Assembly: GCA_947624545.1 (NCBI GenBank)
Contig: CANQKV010000001.1
Span: 1 to 54,725 of the forward strand
DNA: 54,725 bases
Direction of reading: 5' to 3'
Source of the DNA: an uncultured Alphaproteobacteria bacterium
Lineage (GTDB): Bacteria > Pseudomonadota > Alphaproteobacteria > CAAHEQ01 > UBA3637
The position numbers and the translations under genes were made by a program. Shown in pieces: positions 8,863 to 14,376 of this stretch (positions are counted from its first letter, which is position 1; every line of letters starts with the position of its first letter). The notes under the pieces were generated by a model. It saw nothing but the letters and a program-made list of their open reading frames with translations. It was not told where the DNA came from and searched no databases.

Positions 8863-9805
8863 TGTGCTTACACATTTATCAACGGGTGTTCTTTGGATTG
8901 TTTTTGCTTGTGTTGTCGGCTTGATTTTATTTTTGGACTTGTTTGTTTTTCATAAAAAATCGGAAGAACCGTCTTTAAAAAGCACGCTTCATATTTGTTT
9001 GGGTTATTTATGCGTTGCTTTGCTGTTCGGTTTGTTTGTCATAGCGGAAAAAGGTACGGAAACGGGATTTTTGTATTATACCGGTTATTTGGTGGAATTC
9101 AGTCTGTCCATGGATAACATTTTTGTTATGTCACTTGTTTTTACGGGGCTTCATGTGGCATCGGCTTATCAACATCGGGTTTTATTCTGGGGTGTTTTGG
9201 GCGCCATTATCATGCGTGCCGTTATGATTTTACTCGGGGCAGGGCTTGTCAGCTCGTTTCATTGGATTTTATATCTTTTCTCGGCATTTTTAATTTATAC
9301 CGGTGTGAAAATGCTTGTGGAAAAGAAAGAAGAAAGAAGTGATGTTTCCGAAAACAAAGTCATTACTTTTTTAAAACGGTTTATGCATGTAACACCCGCT
9401 TTTCACGGAGAACACTTTTTTGTGAAAGAAAAAGGAAAATGGGCAGCAACGCCGCTCTTTTTTGCGTTGATGAGCATTGAGTTGATGGATGTTGTTTTTG
9501 CCGTTGACAGTATTCCCGCCATTTTCTTGATTACACAAGATGTTTTTGTAATTTACACCAGTAATATTTTTGCCATTTTAGGCTTGCGGTCGTTATACTT
9601 TTTATTGGCGGCGGCCGTCAATCGATTTACCTATTTAAAACACGCCTTGTCGTTGGTTCTTATTTTTATCGGTTTAAAAATATTTTTACCCCATATCGGT
9701 ATAACCGTTTCGAATTTAATGTCGTTAAGCGTAACGTTTTCGTTGTTGGCAATGGGAATTATTGCCTCGCTTTATTTCACAAAAAAACCTTTCCTGAAAA
9801 GATAA
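8855..9805 (+). CDS. TerC-family integral membrane protein
   Basis: A multi-TM protein with EFSLSMDNIFV and IELMDVVFAVDSIPA repeats, the TerC signature. The ATG at 8855 follows an AAAGGA ribosome-binding site; the ORF track starts at 8825. Confidence 0.85.
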   Translation: MFNVLTHLSTGVLWIVFACVVGLILFLDLFVFHKKSEEPSLKSTLHICLGYLCVALLFGLFVIAEKGTETGFLYYTGYLVEFSLSMDNIFVMSLVFTGLHVASAYQHRVLFWGVLGAIIMRAVMILLGAGLVSSFHWILYLFSAFLIYTGVKMLVEKKEERSDVSENKVITFLKRFMHVTPAFHGEHFFVKEKGKWAATPLFFALMSIELMDVVFAVDSIPAIFLITQDVFVIYTSNIFAILGLRSLYFLLAAAVNRFTYLKHALSLVLIFIGLKIFLPHIGITVSNLMSLSVTFSLLAMGIIASLYFTKKPFLKR

Positions 9806-10773
9806 GTTAAAAGTTGATACATTAATTTATATCGTAAAATAATCCAATAACATTTTATGAAAAAATTTAATTTTGCGGATTTTTTTCTCAAAGAAAGATT
9901 TATTCTTCCTAAGAAAAAAGCATGTAAACCCCACATCCATTCTTGTGCGGTTAAATGAAACCGTTGTTGGCAAAGTGAGATCCATTTAATGAACTGAAAA
10001 CAGGGGATTATAACAAAAGGAGAATGCTGAATTAAACAAAAAATATATCGCATTAAATCTTCACTGATACATCCGAAACGAATTTCTTCAAAATCTATAA
10101 AAGCAACGCTTTGATGATGCGTGAATAAAATATTATTATTGTGAAAATCTCCGTGAATAACAGTGTTTTGTAAAATACCCTCTTTTGAAACGGATATTTT
10201 ATTAAAATTTTTTAAAATTTGATGATAAAAATATTTTCCGAAAAAGCTTTTTATTTTTCCGACAGAAGGAGAGAAAAATATATCTGTATTTTGAAGTTTC
10301 TTTTGTATCAAACTGTATTCCTGACACCAATCTGTTGCCGAAGTAATAATACTTTTATCTTTCCACGCTGTTTGTAAAAAATAAGTATACGCTTTTAAAA
10401 TTTTTTGAAAATCGTCAGCTTTTATTTGAAAAAAACGTAAAGATTTTCCCGGTTGATATGTTAAAATAAATCCATATTGATGATGATATAAAAAAGAAGA
10501 TTTTCCTTGAATACGTATCGGTTTTGCGGTTAAAATTTTTGAATTTTGTGCCAATGTTTCATAAACACAAAATAATTGTTCAATGTTTTGCGGTTTAGCG
10601 TTCACACAAAGCTTCACCAGAAATTTTTCATCGATTGTTTTAACAACAAAATTAAGAGATCCGGATCCGCGCTTTAATTTTCGATATTTGATAATCGGTT
10701 TTTGCAAAAGTGTTTCCTGCAAAAATCGGATAAAATCAGAAGTATCAAAAGCGTTTTTGGAAATGGAATTCAT
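9772..10773 (-). CDS. Phosphotransferase-family kinase (APH/choline-kinase fold)
   Basis: Contains the Brenner motif VIHGDFHNNNILF followed by FIDFEE. The gene is markedly more AT-rich than its neighbours. Its 3' end overlaps the terC-family gene convergently by 34 nt. Confidence 0.7.
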   Translation of the reverse strand: MNSISKNAFDTSDFIRFLQETLLQKPIIKYRKLKRGSGSLNFVVKTIDEKFLVKLCVNAKPQNIEQLFCVYETLAQNSKILTAKPIRIQGKSSFLYHHQYGFILTYQPGKSLRFFQIKADDFQKILKAYTYFLQTAWKDKSIITSATDWCQEYSLIQKKLQNTDIFFSPSVGKIKSFFGKYFYHQILKNFNKISVSKEGILQNTVIHGDFHNNNILFTHHQSVAFIDFEEIRFGCISEDLMRYIFCLIQHSPFVIIPCFQFIKWISLCQQRFHLTAQEWMWGLHAFFLGRINLSLRKKSAKLNFFIKCYWIILRYKLMYQLLTYLFRKGFFVK

Positions 10774-10883: not shown

Positions 10884-11468
10884 ATGTATGAAGCATTGGA
10901 AGAAGTGCGTGCCTGTGCGCTGAATTGTCACAAATGCGCGCTCGGGAAAACAAGAAACAATCTTGTTTTTTCCGACGGAATTCCCAATTCCAAATTAATG
11001 TTAATCGGTGAAGCCCCCGGTTATAACGAAGATATGCAGGGAAAGCCGTTTGTCGGTCGGGCAGGGCAGCTGTTGGATAAAATTTTCGAATCGGTCGGAT
11101 TATCTCGGGAAAAAGATGTGTATATTTGTAATACCGTAAAGTGTCGCCCGCCCGAAAATCGTGATCCGTTGCCGGAAGAAAAAGCTGCTTGTCGGGCTTT
11201 TTTGGATCGGCAGATTGAAATTTTAAAACCGCGCTTAATTTTATTATGCGGCAAAGTGGCGCTGACTTCTTTTCTGCCTGATTTAACGGTGGGTATTACC
11301 AAAGTGCGCGGGCAATGGTTTGACGGTCCTTACGGCTCGAAAATGATGCCGATTTTTCATCCGTCGTATTTGTTGCGTAATCCGTCACACAACCCGGGTT
11401 CGCCCAAAGCTTTAATGTGGGAAGATATCAAAAAAATCAAGCAGGCTTATGAGGCGTTGGATAAATAG
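10884..11468 (+). CDS. Uracil-DNA glycosylase, family 4
   Basis: Contains C..C..C Fe-S cysteines at the N-terminus, GEAPGYNED, VKCRPP and FHPSYLLR. Confidence 0.88.
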   Translation: MYEALEEVRACALNCHKCALGKTRNNLVFSDGIPNSKLMLIGEAPGYNEDMQGKPFVGRAGQLLDKIFESVGLSREKDVYICNTVKCRPPENRDPLPEEKAACRAFLDRQIEILKPRLILLCGKVALTSFLPDLTVGITKVRGQWFDGPYGSKMMPIFHPSYLLRNPSHNPGSPKALMWEDIKKIKQAYEALDK

Positions 11469-11558
11469 TTCTTTTTTATCTTTTTTTGAAAAAAGTTCTT
11501 GACTTCAATTCGGCTTTAATTGATAAATTTTATAAAAAGCTATCGGGAAGGATAAAAA

Positions 11559-12830
11559 ATGTATCGCATTTTACGGCTTGTCAGAAATATAGCGGCAATC
11601 ATTTTGTTTTGTTTTTGTGTTTCTGCTTTTACAAAAGCATTTTATCCGCTTTCCTTTTTTAATATTCAAGGCATTTCTTTACTGGAACGCTTTTCGGTGC
11701 GTGAATCGCTTTTTGCCGGTGCAATGTTGATTTTTTTTGTTGTCTTAACGCTTTTGTTCGGGCGAATTTATTGTTCGATTCTCTGTCCGCTCGGGTTATA
11801 TCAGGAGCTTATTCGCCTTATTTTTCATCGGCAACTGCCTTATCGTTCCAATCGGTTTTTTAAATATGTTTTAGCGCTGTTTTTGGTGGGAATGTTGTTT
11901 GGCGGAACGGTATTTGTGACCCGCTTTTTCGATCCCTATGCCTTGTTCGGTGCGGCAATGAGCGGAGCCGTTTGGGGAATATGCCTTTTGGCGGGTATAA
12001 CGGTTTTAACGGTCTTTAAAGGGCGGTTTTTCTGTACCGATATTTGCCCTCTCGGTGCAATACTGGGTTTTTTGTCACGTTTTGCACTTTTTCGGGTGTT
12101 TATTGATGATTCAAAATGTCGCACCTGCGGCAAATGTGCCAAAGTTTGCCCGAGCGGATGTATTGATTATAAAAATCATTTTGTCAATAATGAACTGTGC
12201 GTACGCTGTTCGGCTTGTTTAAAAGTTTGTCCGTTTCAGGCAATGCGCTTTGGTAAAAAATCACCGCCGCCGATTGCGTTTAACTTAAAACGGCGTGAGT
12301 TTTTGCTGGGGGCTTTATCTTTGGCTGTGGTCGGTGCGGCTTATAAAAGCGGATTGACTTTGGTTCAAAAAACGGCACATCGATTTAAAAATATTATTGT
12401 ACCGCCCGGCGGTGAATCGCCTGATGCTTTTGTCAATCGGTGCTTGAATTGTAATTTATGCGTGCAAAACTGCCCGATGAAAGTGTTAAAGAAAGCAACA
12501 ACGGCTTATCCCGCCGTTCATTTGGAATATGATAACAGTTTTTGCGCCGATTCATGTCATCGCTGTTCGCAAATATGCCCCTCGGGGGCATTAAAACGCC
12601 TTTCTTTGGCACAAAAACGGCAAACAAAAATCGGTACGGCTGATATTAATGCCGAAATTTGTATTAATTGCGGTTTATGTGTTATGGAATGTCCGCGCGG
12701 TGCTATCATACAAGAGGCAACAACAGTTCGTGTACAACGGGAAAAATGTATCGGCTGCGGTGCCTGTAAAGCAGTATGTCCCGTGCAGGCGATTTTGGTT
12801 AACGGAGTTGAAAAACAAACAAACGTATAA
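11559..12830 (+). CDS. Membrane polyferredoxin: NapH-like N-terminal half fused to a NapG-like C-terminal half
   Basis: About four TM helices with two GRxxCxxxCPLG motifs (GRIYCSILCPLG, GRFFCTDICPLG). Two CxxCxxCxxxCP clusters follow, then KRREFLLGALSLAVVGAA (a twin-arginine motif plus TM). After that comes PPGGESPDAFVNRCLNCNLCVQNCP and three more 4Fe-4S cysteine motifs. Confidence 0.7.
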   Translation: MYRILRLVRNIAAIILFCFCVSAFTKAFYPLSFFNIQGISLLERFSVRESLFAGAMLIFFVVLTLLFGRIYCSILCPLGLYQELIRLIFHRQLPYRSNRFFKYVLALFLVGMLFGGTVFVTRFFDPYALFGAAMSGAVWGICLLAGITVLTVFKGRFFCTDICPLGAILGFLSRFALFRVFIDDSKCRTCGKCAKVCPSGCIDYKNHFVNNELCVRCSACLKVCPFQAMRFGKKSPPPIAFNLKRREFLLGALSLAVVGAAYKSGLTLVQKTAHRFKNIIVPPGGESPDAFVNRCLNCNLCVQNCPMKVLKKATTAYPAVHLEYDNSFCADSCHRCSQICPSGALKRLSLAQKRQTKIGTADINAEICINCGLCVMECPRGAIIQEATTVRVQREKCIGCGACKAVCPVQAILVNGVEKQTNV

Positions 12831-12850
12831 ATAACAAAAGGAGGAAAAAA

Positions 12851-13042
12851 ATGTCTATCGGTTTAACGGAACTCGGATTGATTTTGGTGATTGCTTTATT
12901 ATTATTCGGCGGAAAACGGTTGCCCGAATTGGCACGCGGATTGGGTCGGGCGCATTATGAATACAAAAAAGCCAAAAATCTGCTTCAAAACGAGGCACGC
13001 GAAATTAAAGAAGCGCTTGATGCGGAAAATGAAAAAAAATAA
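12851..13042 (+). CDS. tatA: Twin-arginine translocase subunit TatA/E
   Basis: A 63-aa protein, MSIGLTELGLILVIALLLFGGKRLPELARGLGRA, with the FG hinge and amphipathic helix. A GGAGGA ribosome-binding site lies upstream. Confidence 0.9.
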   Translation: MSIGLTELGLILVIALLLFGGKRLPELARGLGRAHYEYKKAKNLLQNEAREIKEALDAENEKK

Positions 13043-13766
13043 AACGCTTTCAAACGAAACGATTTTACCGCATTTGGAAGCGTTTCGACAAGTATTGTTA
13101 CACTGTCTTATTGCGTTGGGCGTTGTGTTCATACCGGCGTTTTTAGCGGCGCCGATGTGTTTAAACGCGCTCACGAGGTTATTTCTCGATTCCTCTCATT
13201 CTTTAAATTATTTTACGCCGCTGGAAGTTTTTTGGGTGCAGGTAAAATTAGCGTTCGTGATTGATTTAATTTTTTGTGCGCCGTTGATTGCTCGGTCGGT
13301 TTGGCGTTTTTTATTGCCGGCGCTTTATGAATCGGAACGCAGAATGATTCGATATTTATCTTTATGCGCTGCCGGTTTGTTTATAACAGGCGTGTGTTGT
13401 TGTTTATTTTTCATTATGCCGACGGTTATTCGATTCGGATTCAGTTTTGAATCTGTCGGTTTAAACGCTGTTTGGAGCATCAGTGCCTTGATTGATTTCG
13501 CTCTGAAACTTTCCGTTGTTTTCGGGCTGATGTTTCAATTTCCGTTAATGACTTATGCCTTAATTCGCTTGAAAATTGTTTCGAAAGAAAAAGTTAAACA
13601 GCAGCGTCCGAGTGTTTTTTTGGGTATTTTAATTTTATCGGCACTCTTGACACCGCCGGATATAATCAGCCAGCTTTTGTTGGCGCTTCCGACATATTTT
13701 TTGTTTGAACTCGGCTTGTTTTTTGCTAAAGATGAAAAAAAGAAAAAAAAAGTCTTGACATTATGA
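13029..13766 (+). CDS. tatC: Twin-arginine translocase subunit TatC
   Basis: Has the six-TM TatC pattern: HLEAFRQVLL, FLLPALYESERR, LLTPPD. The likely start is ATG at 13029 (or 13020), overlapping the tatA 3' end. The ORF-track start at 12891 lies inside tatA. Confidence 0.88.
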   Translation: MKKNKTLSNETILPHLEAFRQVLLHCLIALGVVFIPAFLAAPMCLNALTRLFLDSSHSLNYFTPLEVFWVQVKLAFVIDLIFCAPLIARSVWRFLLPALYESERRMIRYLSLCAAGLFITGVCCCLFFIMPTVIRFGFSFESVGLNAVWSISALIDFALKLSVVFGLMFQFPLMTYALIRLKIVSKEKVKQQRPSVFLGILILSALLTPPDIISQLLLALPTYFLFELGLFFAKDEKKKKKVLTL

Positions 13767-13812
13767 CTGTTTTGAATGAGATTCTATAAAGAGTAAAATA
13801 AAGGAGGAAAAA

Positions 13813-14376
13813 ATGAAAAAATTATTATTCGGCTTATTAGCCGGTACGCTTTTACCGTTCGGTGCGGCGCATGCCGATGAAACGAGTGTGTCAAACCAAA
13901 ATCCGAATGTGTTGATTGCCTATTATTCCTGGTCGGGAAACACAAAGGAAATTGCCGAGGATATTCATAAAGCCGTCGGCGGTACGCTTTTTGAAATTCA
14001 AACCGTTCAAAGTTATCCGGAAGAATATCGCGCAACGACGGAGCAAGCCAAAAAAGAAATTAACGATCATTTTAAGCCGCAATTAAAAACAAAAGTTGAA
14101 AATATGGCGCAGTATGATACGATTTTTATCGGTTCGCCGAATTGGTGGGGTACCATTGCGCCTGCCGTCAGCAGTTTTTTGGCAGAATATGATTTGAACG
14201 GTAAAACCGTTATTCCGTTTATTACACACGGCGGGGGCGGCGAACAAAATACCGTTAAAGATTTAACGGCACAATGCAACGGATGTAACGTTTCTTCTCA
14301 TCCGTGGGTCAGTTATAAAACAATGACGCTCGGACGAATGAGCGGTTGGTTAAAAGAAATCGGATTTAAAGAATAA
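13813..14376 (+). CDS. Exported flavodoxin-like protein (Flavodoxin_4-type)
   Basis: Has a signal peptide, MKKLLFGLLAGTLLPFGAAHA. VLIAYYSWSGNTKEIAEDI and IGSPNWWGTIAP are flavodoxin FMN-binding-type motifs. Confidence 0.7.
   Translation: MKKLLFGLLAGTLLPFGAAHADETSVSNQNPNVLIAYYSWSGNTKEIAEDIHKAVGGTLFEIQTVQSYPEEYRATTEQAKKEINDHFKPQLKTKVENMAQYDTIFIGSPNWWGTIAPAVSSFLAEYDLNGKTVIPFITHGGGGEQNTVKDLTAQCNGCNVSSHPWVSYKTMTLGRMSGWLKEIGFKE

Follow-up and report, generated by a model that had tools for sequence, protein, structure and literature searches.

The first membrane proteins known to be assembled by both Sec and the twin-arginine translocation (Tat) pathway were the actinobacterial Rieske proteins (Sco2149, QcrA), in which an internal twin arginine (RR) precedes the last helix and a folded Fe-S domain is exported by Tat after Sec insertion. 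Tooke, Babot, Chandra, Buchanan and Palmer (eLife 2017, PMC5449189) sought proteins with internal Tat motifs and described a "polytopic polyferredoxin" (PFD), Q1NSB0 of the delta proteobacterium MLMS-1, which they termed "a fusion of NapH ... with NapG". This protein has five transmembrane domains (TMDs), a conserved RR right before TMD5, and Fe-S clusters on both sides of the membrane. Reporters placed after TMD5 were exported in a Tat-dependent manner, dual Sec/Tat insertion was shown, and the handover from Sec to Tat was found to be governed by the low hydrophobicity of TMD5 together with positive charges after it (PMC5449189). Here we analyzed a 54,725-nt stretch of an uncultured alphaproteobacterial genome (contig CANQKV010000001.1 of GCA_947624545.1; hereafter the window), in which a PFD gene is followed directly by tatA, tatC, and a gene for a Flavodoxin_4 protein predicted to be exported. 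From homology, gene content, and linkage, we think it probable that a dual-inserted PFD, TatAC, and the flavodoxin make up a quinone-independent electron outlet from ferredoxin to the periplasm, in which Tat serves chiefly the PFD.

The initial annotation of this locus had taken the Rieske proteins as precedent. The parallel in dual Sec/Tat assembly holds, but these proteins belong to an unrelated family, carry a [2Fe-2S] cluster, have three helices rather than five, and act in the bc1 complex; the PFD of Tooke et al. is the closer precedent. Residues 1-364 of MLMS-1 PFD (Supplementary file 1 of PMC5449189), compared by BLASTP with the window PFD, aligned collinearly with 23% identity over the aligned part (E 1e-6), and both CX3CP motifs, both cytoplasmic cluster motifs, and the RR were in register. 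The two proteins have in common a NapH-like four-helix module with two CX3CP motifs, cytoplasmic Fe-S motifs, an RR before TMD5, and a four-cluster NapG-like C-terminal domain. The window protein differs in being considerably more compact (TMD5 lies at ∼248-269 rather than 338-359) and in belonging to a gut-alphaproteobacterial subfamily of ∼424 aa. The 2017 study contains no gene-context analysis, and neither a tatAC linkage nor a flavodoxin partner is described there.

Three other described systems resemble parts of the locus. Both halves of PFD are homologous to NapGH, the quinol dehydrogenase of periplasmic nitrate reductase in Escherichia coli and Wolinella succinogenes, in which NapG is Tat-exported and carries four clusters, and NapH has four helices and cytoplasmic clusters. 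Unlike NapGH, the window protein is one polypeptide outside any nap operon, and membership in that system was rejected on three counts: scores below the NapH and NapG cut-offs, no NapA-type molybdoenzyme, and no detected quinone synthesis. A minimal TatAC in an operon with dedicated cargo is described for phoD-tatAdCd of Bacillus subtilis (Pop et al. 2002, as cited in PMC13673990); there the cargo is a soluble phosphodiesterase secreted by a Gram-positive organism, whereas here, in a Gram-negative one, it would be the terminal part of a polytopic Fe-S membrane protein (its final helix and the domain that follows), and the linked Tat is the sole one found in the genome. Finally, Meheust et al. 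(2021, PMC8238504) describe ApbE/NapH-like systems in which electrons are proposed to cross the membrane through a PF12801 Fe-S protein and to reach an extracytosolic flavoprotein, and extracytosolic Flavodoxin_4 redox proteins of Firmicutes are flavinylated by ApbE via an inserted loop (mSystems 2024, PMC11334425). A PF12801 membrane protein and a Flavodoxin_4 protein predicted to be extracytosolic recur here, but ApbE was found in 0 of the 80 species genomes of the order to which the window's genome belongs, the Pfam matches of PFD, TatA, TatC, and the flavodoxin include no FMN_bind domain, the flavodoxin lacks the flavinylation loop, and the relay would be a Tat-exported polyferredoxin domain. 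An ApbE-type system was rejected on these grounds. Since quinone genes, ApbE, and related functions were not found, neither it nor a NapGH-like quinol dehydrogenase role is likely.

The polyferredoxin and its internal twin-arginine motif

The PFD gene lies on the forward strand. Its parts are listed below, with the evidence for each in parentheses.

11559-12830, + strand: PFD, polytopic polyferredoxin of 423 aa, a NapH-like membrane module joined to a NapG-like 4x[4Fe-4S] domain (open reading frame (ORF), Pfam, NCBIfam, AlphaFold2 (AF2) model, alignment to MLMS-1 PFD)
11772-11789, + strand: first CX3CP motif, C72-P77 within GRIYCSILCPLG, a NapH hallmark (motif scan, conservation)
12033-12050, + strand: second CX3CP motif, C159-P164 within GRFFCTDICPLG (motif scan, conservation)
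12117-12233, + strand: di-cluster ferredoxin domain, predicted to be cytoplasmic, C187...C197 and C214...C224-P225 (motif scan, conservation, MLMS-1 alignment)
12291-12296, + strand: internal twin arginine, R245 R246 (homologue conservation)
12300-12365, + strand: TMD5, F248-V269, by analogy the Tat-dependent helix (AF2, Hessa sum, charge, homologue alignment)
12402-12827, + strand: NapG-like domain, predicted to be periplasmic, with four [4Fe-4S] motifs starting at C295, C329, C368, and C397 (conservation, PDB sequence matches)

That this 423-aa protein joins a NapH-like to a NapG-like part had been claimed from the outset and is borne out by the ORF, by Pfam and NCBIfam, and by the motifs. 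Two stretches of PFD match Pfam Fer4_5, the membrane motif of NapH, and many Fer4/ferredoxin families match as well. The NCBIfam NapH model covers residues 41-233 (E 7.8e-27; 94.1 bits against an equivalog cut-off of 234), and the NapG model covers residues 242-410 (E 1.8e-15; 56.8 bits against a cut-off of 269), with the latter aligning from its own signal region onward (profile positions 8-199). Hydropathy peaks at residues 7-25, 50-68, 103-121, and 135-153 mark the NapH-like part, along with two GRxxCxxxCPLG motifs (residues 68-79 and 155-166) and two CxxCxxCxxxC motifs starting at residues 187 and 214. After the RR, cluster motifs follow at 295, 329 (with variant spacing), 368, and 397, and the protein has 32 Cys in total. 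Among 71 diverse PFD homologues, C72, C76, P77, C159, and C163 are each conserved in at least 90%, and P164, the Cys of the di-cluster domain, and all 16 Cys in the four motifs of the NapG-like domain are invariant. The predicted cytoplasmic location of the di-cluster domain is based on the NapH topology of Brondijk et al. (2004), as that work is cited in PMC5449189.

The sole RR of PFD (residues 245-246) lies inside KRREFLLGALSLAVVGAAYK and is followed by FLLGALSLAVVGAAYK. R245 is retained in 120 of 121 full-length PFD homologues and R246 in all 121, and for this reason we regard the motif as more than chance; it is likewise present in the g3, g6, and g8 PFD orthologues. An internal Tat-type RR in front of helix 5, another point of the initial annotation, is thus confirmed as a conserved feature. 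The window PFD also displays both handover features named by Tooke et al. Of the five helices, helix 5 has the lowest hydrophobicity, with a crude sum on the Hessa 2005 scale of +4.0 compared to -2.3 to +1.0 for TM1-4 and a median of +2.5 in the 121 homologues; these sums are cruder than the position-weighted dGpred used by Tooke et al. The 18 residues after helix 5 carry a net charge of +4, and at least +2 in every homologue. K263 is conserved within TMD5, K270, R275, and K277 lie downstream, and position 275 is K in 113/121 homologues.

A structure prediction, one of the checks proposed for the fusion, gave an AF2 model built on the 71 homologues with a pLDDT of 91.7 and a pTM of 0.86, in which one long helix (residues 244-275) connects the two ferredoxin-type parts. 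The closest PDB sequence matches for the NapG-like domain were the polyferredoxins MvhB and FwdF. PDB sequence and Foldseek searches gave only ferredoxin-domain matches (MvhB, FwdF, RnfB), and the NapH-like membrane fold was not among the solved structures. The topology first proposed for this protein, and with it a requirement for both Sec and Tat, is supported by homology to MLMS-1 PFD. The window protein belongs to the PFD family known for dual Sec/Tat insertion, and we infer that, as in the homologue with tested reporters, its C-terminal domain would be translocated in a Tat-dependent manner.

The fusion had also been called an unusual Tat substrate, which does not hold. A word-indexed search matched more than 1399 proteins to the window PFD, the best 120 of them all ∼424 aa long and 46-91% identical to it. 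At E≤1e-30 the family makes up 700 representative clusters, mostly full-length fusions of 420-560 aa, many of which carry an internal S/T-RR-x-F-L. The PFD fusion is therefore common, and its combination with an internal Tat signal is not new, since it was published in 2017 (PMC5449189). What is added here is a private TatAC clade tied to PFD, the tracking of PFD by Tat in a gut order with reduced genomes, a candidate partner of the Sec-exported Flavodoxin_4 type, and the quinone-free background. In the literature searched, we found no publication describing any of these four.

Linkage of PFD to tatAC and to the flavodoxin gene

Three genes follow PFD on the same strand.

12851-13042, + strand: tatA, 63 aa (Pfam TatA_B_E, 57.8 bits)
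13020-13766, + strand: tatC, ∼245-248 aa (Pfam TatC, 168.5 bits)
13813-14376, + strand: Flavodoxin_4 protein, 187 aa, predicted to be exported (Pfam PF12682, 94.8 bits against a cut-off of 24)

The spacer between PFD and tatA is 20 nt, and a strong Shine-Dalgarno sequence, AAAGGAGG, lies upstream of tatA. Most probably, tatC starts while tatA is still being read, at ATG 13020 or 13029, rather than at the TTG 12891 of the mechanical ORF; TatC homologues are 237-242 aa long. A scan for promoters and terminators gave counts close to the shuffled expectation. In a whole-genome search of the assembly (1.26 Mb, 91 contigs, 77% complete), tatA was the sole match to the TatA/B family (PF02416) and tatC the sole match to TatC (PF00902). 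The initial report of tatA and tatC without tatB thus extends from the window to the assembly, which encodes a two-component TatAC; a separate tatB was not found there, and the completeness of 77% leaves room for a second TatA/B gene.

The flavodoxin-like protein with a Sec-type signal, also noted initially, was recovered as such. By inspection, its signal peptide spans residues 1-21 (nt 13813-13875), MKKLLFGLLAGTLLPFGAAHA/DE, with cleavage at AHA/DE. Its PDB relatives are 4ICI, 4J8P, and 3KLB, the last of which carries non-covalent FMN (PMC11334425), and a phosphate-loop-like SWSGNT is present. Judged by its sequence, the window flavodoxin would likewise bind FMN non-covalently.

We examined the gene neighborhood in 67 species-level loci with a full-length PFD and ≥400 bp of downstream sequence, as the initial annotation had recommended, with absence of conservation to be read as coincidence of adjacency. 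In 51/67 loci, tatA begins <150 nt after PFD and is followed by tatC, and a Flavodoxin_4 orthologue (≥45% identity) lies ≤6 kb from PFD in 34/67, either upstream, downstream, or ∼4 kb off. Both linkages thus recur. The PFDs of this set are only 45-52% identical to the window protein, which indicates that the PFD-tatAC arrangement is old or has been repeatedly selected; the same PFD-tatA-tatC order accompanies a 39%-identical PFD homologue from another metagenome. The ∼39 flavodoxin orthologues at PFD loci all have a Sec-type N-terminal signal, and none has an RR. In five other PFD-bearing genomes, from other lineages, the PFD-linked tatC is again the only TatC.

Within the order (80 species genomes, one family, 16 genera), PFD was found in 12 genomes and TatC in 12, with both in 11/80 and neither in 67/80; many of the latter are >95% complete. 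One of the two discordant genomes, 78% complete, carries no more than a piece of PFD, at the end of a contig. The other (G012) is complete and has TatC without PFD, so its Tat must serve another substrate. At the genus level, four genera have PFD and Tat and 12 have neither, and in the window's own genus the four genes occur only in four closely related rabbit-type genomes. In two genera (g6, g8), PFD and tat are unlinked, and tatA-tatC stand in a housekeeping context before serS. The PFD-linked TatCs, among which the window TatC falls, share 45-78% identity with one another but only 25-34% with the serS-linked TatC of sister genera. A distinct TatC clade has thus co-traveled with PFD.

The only PFD-bearing genome of the order in which the flavodoxin orthologue is not next to PFD or within ∼1.5 kb of it is the one with the contig-end fragment (G006). 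This proximity spans all four PFD-bearing genera and three gene orders and is kept even where tat lies elsewhere, which argues that PFD and the flavodoxin form a tighter functional pair than PFD and tat. The idea of a periplasmic flavoprotein as electron partner, already contained in the initial annotation, is supported to this extent by gene linkage, and by linkage only.

Several further features of these loci were observed. In L117, L119, and L121 (G010, G016, and G012), the tat genes of g6/g8 form a conserved row of a nagZ-like gene, a gene for a 224-aa membrane protease-like protein (missing in G012), tatA (longer, 115-149 aa), and tatC, with serS next in G010 and G012. In G007, a genome of the one further genus in which the genes stand in the order PFD-tatA-tatC-flavodoxin, an additional TatA-like reading frame lies ∼1.6 kb upstream of PFD (L120:2637-2765). 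In G011, a genome of a sister genus, PFD appeared to be split exactly at the RR into a NapH-like half (C32:12549-13286) and a NapG-like half (C21:15597-16109), but both halves abut contig ends and the split is therefore an assembly break, not a natural one. A 378-aa metallophosphoesterase gene lies downstream of PFD in L075 (10215-11351), and also in L058, L061, L063, and L066, directly after PFD or after tatC. Its product carries a TM helix at the N terminus, followed further in by KRRK and a hydrophobic helix (SKRRKIFGAAAAVFLF...), and it resembles the YkuE-type proteins, the third family that Tooke et al. considered a candidate for dual Sec/Tat insertion. The two metallophosphoesterase homologues in the window's genome (C3:50236-51909 and C40:8462-9697) have no RR.

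Tat substrates, electron entry, and competing explanations

We further surveyed the window's genome for other Tat cargo by scanning 1256 ORFs of ≥120 aa for an RR followed by a hydrophobic, uncharged stretch. No further credible Tat signal, N-terminal or internal, was found among them. PFD was the only cofactor protein among the matches and the only match of the form RR-[DE]-hydrophobic stretch. The remaining candidates were all rejected: some were Sec-like signals of proteins that carry no cofactor (Sel1-like, MscS-like, an outer-membrane beta-barrel, and SPOR), and the others were helices within proteins or ORFs judged spurious. PFD is the only recognizable Tat substrate in the assembled 77% of the genome, and in this lineage Tat appears to have been kept or acquired chiefly for assembling PFD.

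The pathway that we favor would run as follows. By analogy with MLMS-1 PFD, Sec/YidC would insert helices 1-4 so that the di-cluster ferredoxin domain stays cytoplasmic. We propose that Sec rejects helix 5 because it is weakly hydrophobic, preceded by the invariant RR, and followed by a positive stretch. The C-terminal four-cluster domain would fold and load its Fe-S clusters in the cytoplasm, and TatAC from the downstream genes would then move it across the membrane, with helix 5 remaining as an anchor. The assembled PFD would be a trans-membrane chain of approximately seven Fe-S clusters. Reduced ferredoxin would feed the cytoplasmic clusters, from which electrons would pass through the membrane module to the four periplasmic clusters and on to the flavodoxin. 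The Sec-exported Flavodoxin_4 protein, with its non-covalent FMN, would take up these electrons and reduce some periplasmic acceptor. Its role as the partner of PFD is suggested by gene linkage.

A quinone-independent entry of electrons from ferredoxin is proposed because quinone synthesis, cytochrome bd, Rnf/Nqr, molybdoenzymes, Rieske proteins, and ApbE were not detected, while pyruvate:ferredoxin oxidoreductase (PFOR) and [FeFe]-hydrogenase are present. PFOR was found in 20/21 genomes of the window's genus, and [FeFe]-hydrogenase in the window's genome and its close relatives. The absences rest mainly on five PFD-bearing relatives of 94-99% completeness. No Rieske protein and no molybdopterin oxidoreductase (PF00384, NapA-type included) was found in these five or in the window's genome, and in the latter we also found no cytochrome bd, Rnf/Nqr, or Frd/Sdh. 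UbiA-family prenyltransferases are needed for ubiquinone, menaquinone, and heme O. None was detected in any of the six genomes, and the same search matched 14/14 reference genomes as a control. The initial annotation had offered the quinone pool or the cytoplasm as the electron source; of these, the cytoplasm is kept and the quinone pool is disfavored.

A number of points weigh against this electron outlet. A Sec-exported flavodoxin would have to be loaded with FMN in the periplasm, and electrons would have to cross the NapH-like membrane part, whose fold is absent from solved structures. In other lineages PFD stands beside Tat-exported proteins combining an aldo-keto reductase (AKR) with Fe-S motifs, or beside Flavodoxin_2 proteins, and the true terminal enzyme could lie in the unassembled 23% of the window's genome. 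Absences in that genome are weak because of its incompleteness, and quinones could be scavenged. Adjacent tatAC is missing from 16/67 PFD loci. Since relatives are not independent, the co-occurrence of Tat and PFD in the order amounts to about four genus-level events, not 80 observations.

Of the competing explanations, the one that survives best, though we consider it unlikely, is that PFD is a quinol dehydrogenase of the NapGH type that passes electrons from quinol, perhaps scavenged menaquinone, through the periplasmic clusters to the flavodoxin. NapH and NapG are the best NCBIfam matches of PFD, Tooke et al. call the family a NapH-NapG fusion, with NapGH a quinol dehydrogenase (PMC5449189), and according to Meheust et al. 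(2021, PMC8238504) NapH-like proteins may "in some cases" receive their electrons from a quinol. The scores, however, fall far below both equivalog cut-offs, the UbiA family is missing from the window's genome and its five near-complete relatives despite the full recovery in the control, and neither the other respiratory enzymes sought in the window's genome nor, in any of the six, a NapA-type molybdoenzyme was found.

It is also rather unlikely that the flavodoxin stands next to PFD through co-regulation or chance, with the real partner being another exported enzyme, for example a Tat-exported AKR with an Fe-S tail, encoded in the unassembled part of a genome that is 77% complete. In other gut Alphaproteobacteria, the neighbors of PFD are aldo-keto reductase plus 4Fe-4S proteins and a Flavodoxin_2/FMN_red protein (L075:5349-7335 and L124:3993-6470), which start with classic Tat signals (MNRREFL..., MNRRNFIK...), two of them with a possible lipobox Cys. 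These would be periplasmic reductases wired to PFD, and they support the view of PFD as a general electron supplier to periplasmic enzymes. Yet tblastn with the AKR-Fe-S proteins gave no match in the assembled part of the window's genome, no homologue of these neighbors was found there, and chance is hard to credit when each of the four PFD-bearing genera shows the linkage of flavodoxin and PFD, in three gene orders overall.

Unlikely too, in our view, is a third possibility, that helix 5 is a cleavable Tat signal. Signal peptidase I would cut after A-x-A at 259-261, freeing the NapG-like domain and leaving a NapH-like stub, and the fusion would ensure a 1:1 ratio of NapG to NapH. The homologue consensus A259-x-A261 (A259 in 92/121, A261 in 112/121) does resemble an AxA-like c-region after a 14-residue h-region, and the NapG model aligns from its own signal region, but the window PFD has Gly at 259, the AF2 model shows an unbroken 32-residue helix that reaches into the periplasmic domain, and TMD5 counts as a transmembrane domain in the work of Tooke et al. 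(PMC5449189). Least credible is inward flow, in which the periplasmic flavoprotein oxidizes an external donor and PFD passes the electrons to cytoplasmic ferredoxin or hydrogenase: NapH-like modules have been proposed for both reductases and oxidases (PMC8238504) and [FeFe]-hydrogenase offers a possible sink, but reduction of low-potential ferredoxin from outside needs an energy input for which no source is evident, and a PFOR fermenter has surplus reducing power.

If the outward, ferredoxin-driven route through PFD is correct, the locus would be a natural case of a whole Tat system serving one polytopic membrane protein and would provide a clean model of Sec-to-Tat handover with a cognate two-component translocase. 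NapH/NapG-type Fe-S wires would then work without quinones and would tie cytoplasmic ferredoxin to periplasmic chemistry in abundant uncultured gut Alphaproteobacteria, and exported Flavodoxin_4 proteins would be candidate periplasmic redox enzymes. A broader version, which we put forward tentatively and judge doubtful, is that the four genes are a self-contained, horizontally mobile "electron outlet" cassette with its own private TatAC clade. Such a cassette would give gut fermenters without quinones, cytochromes, or ApbE a ferredoxin-driven periplasmic reductase built from only Fe-S clusters and a non-covalent flavin, with Tat maintained for a single membrane-protein substrate.

Genomic setting of the locus

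The closest records to the window are rabbit-gut metagenome-assembled genomes (MAGs) of uncultured Alphaproteobacteria. We looked for an empty site that would document acquisition of the four genes, but no clean insertion site was found in PFD-less species of the same genus. Synteny with the PFD-less congeners extends from ∼4.8 kb up to the UDG gene and breaks at the UDG/PFD junction (11468-11559). Beyond UDG, each genome has a different region, with counterparts on other contigs (C2, C58, C81, C87) of the window's genome. With synteny broken after UDG and variable neighbors, the four genes lie at a rearrangement-prone point.

Between TerC and UDG, the window also carries an AT-rich, variable gene for an APH-fold kinase-like protein (9772-10773, - strand). 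A C-terminal remnant with 80% identity is present in a sister MAG (L002), the gene is absent from L003 and L004, and the versions in other congeners are 28-34% identical.

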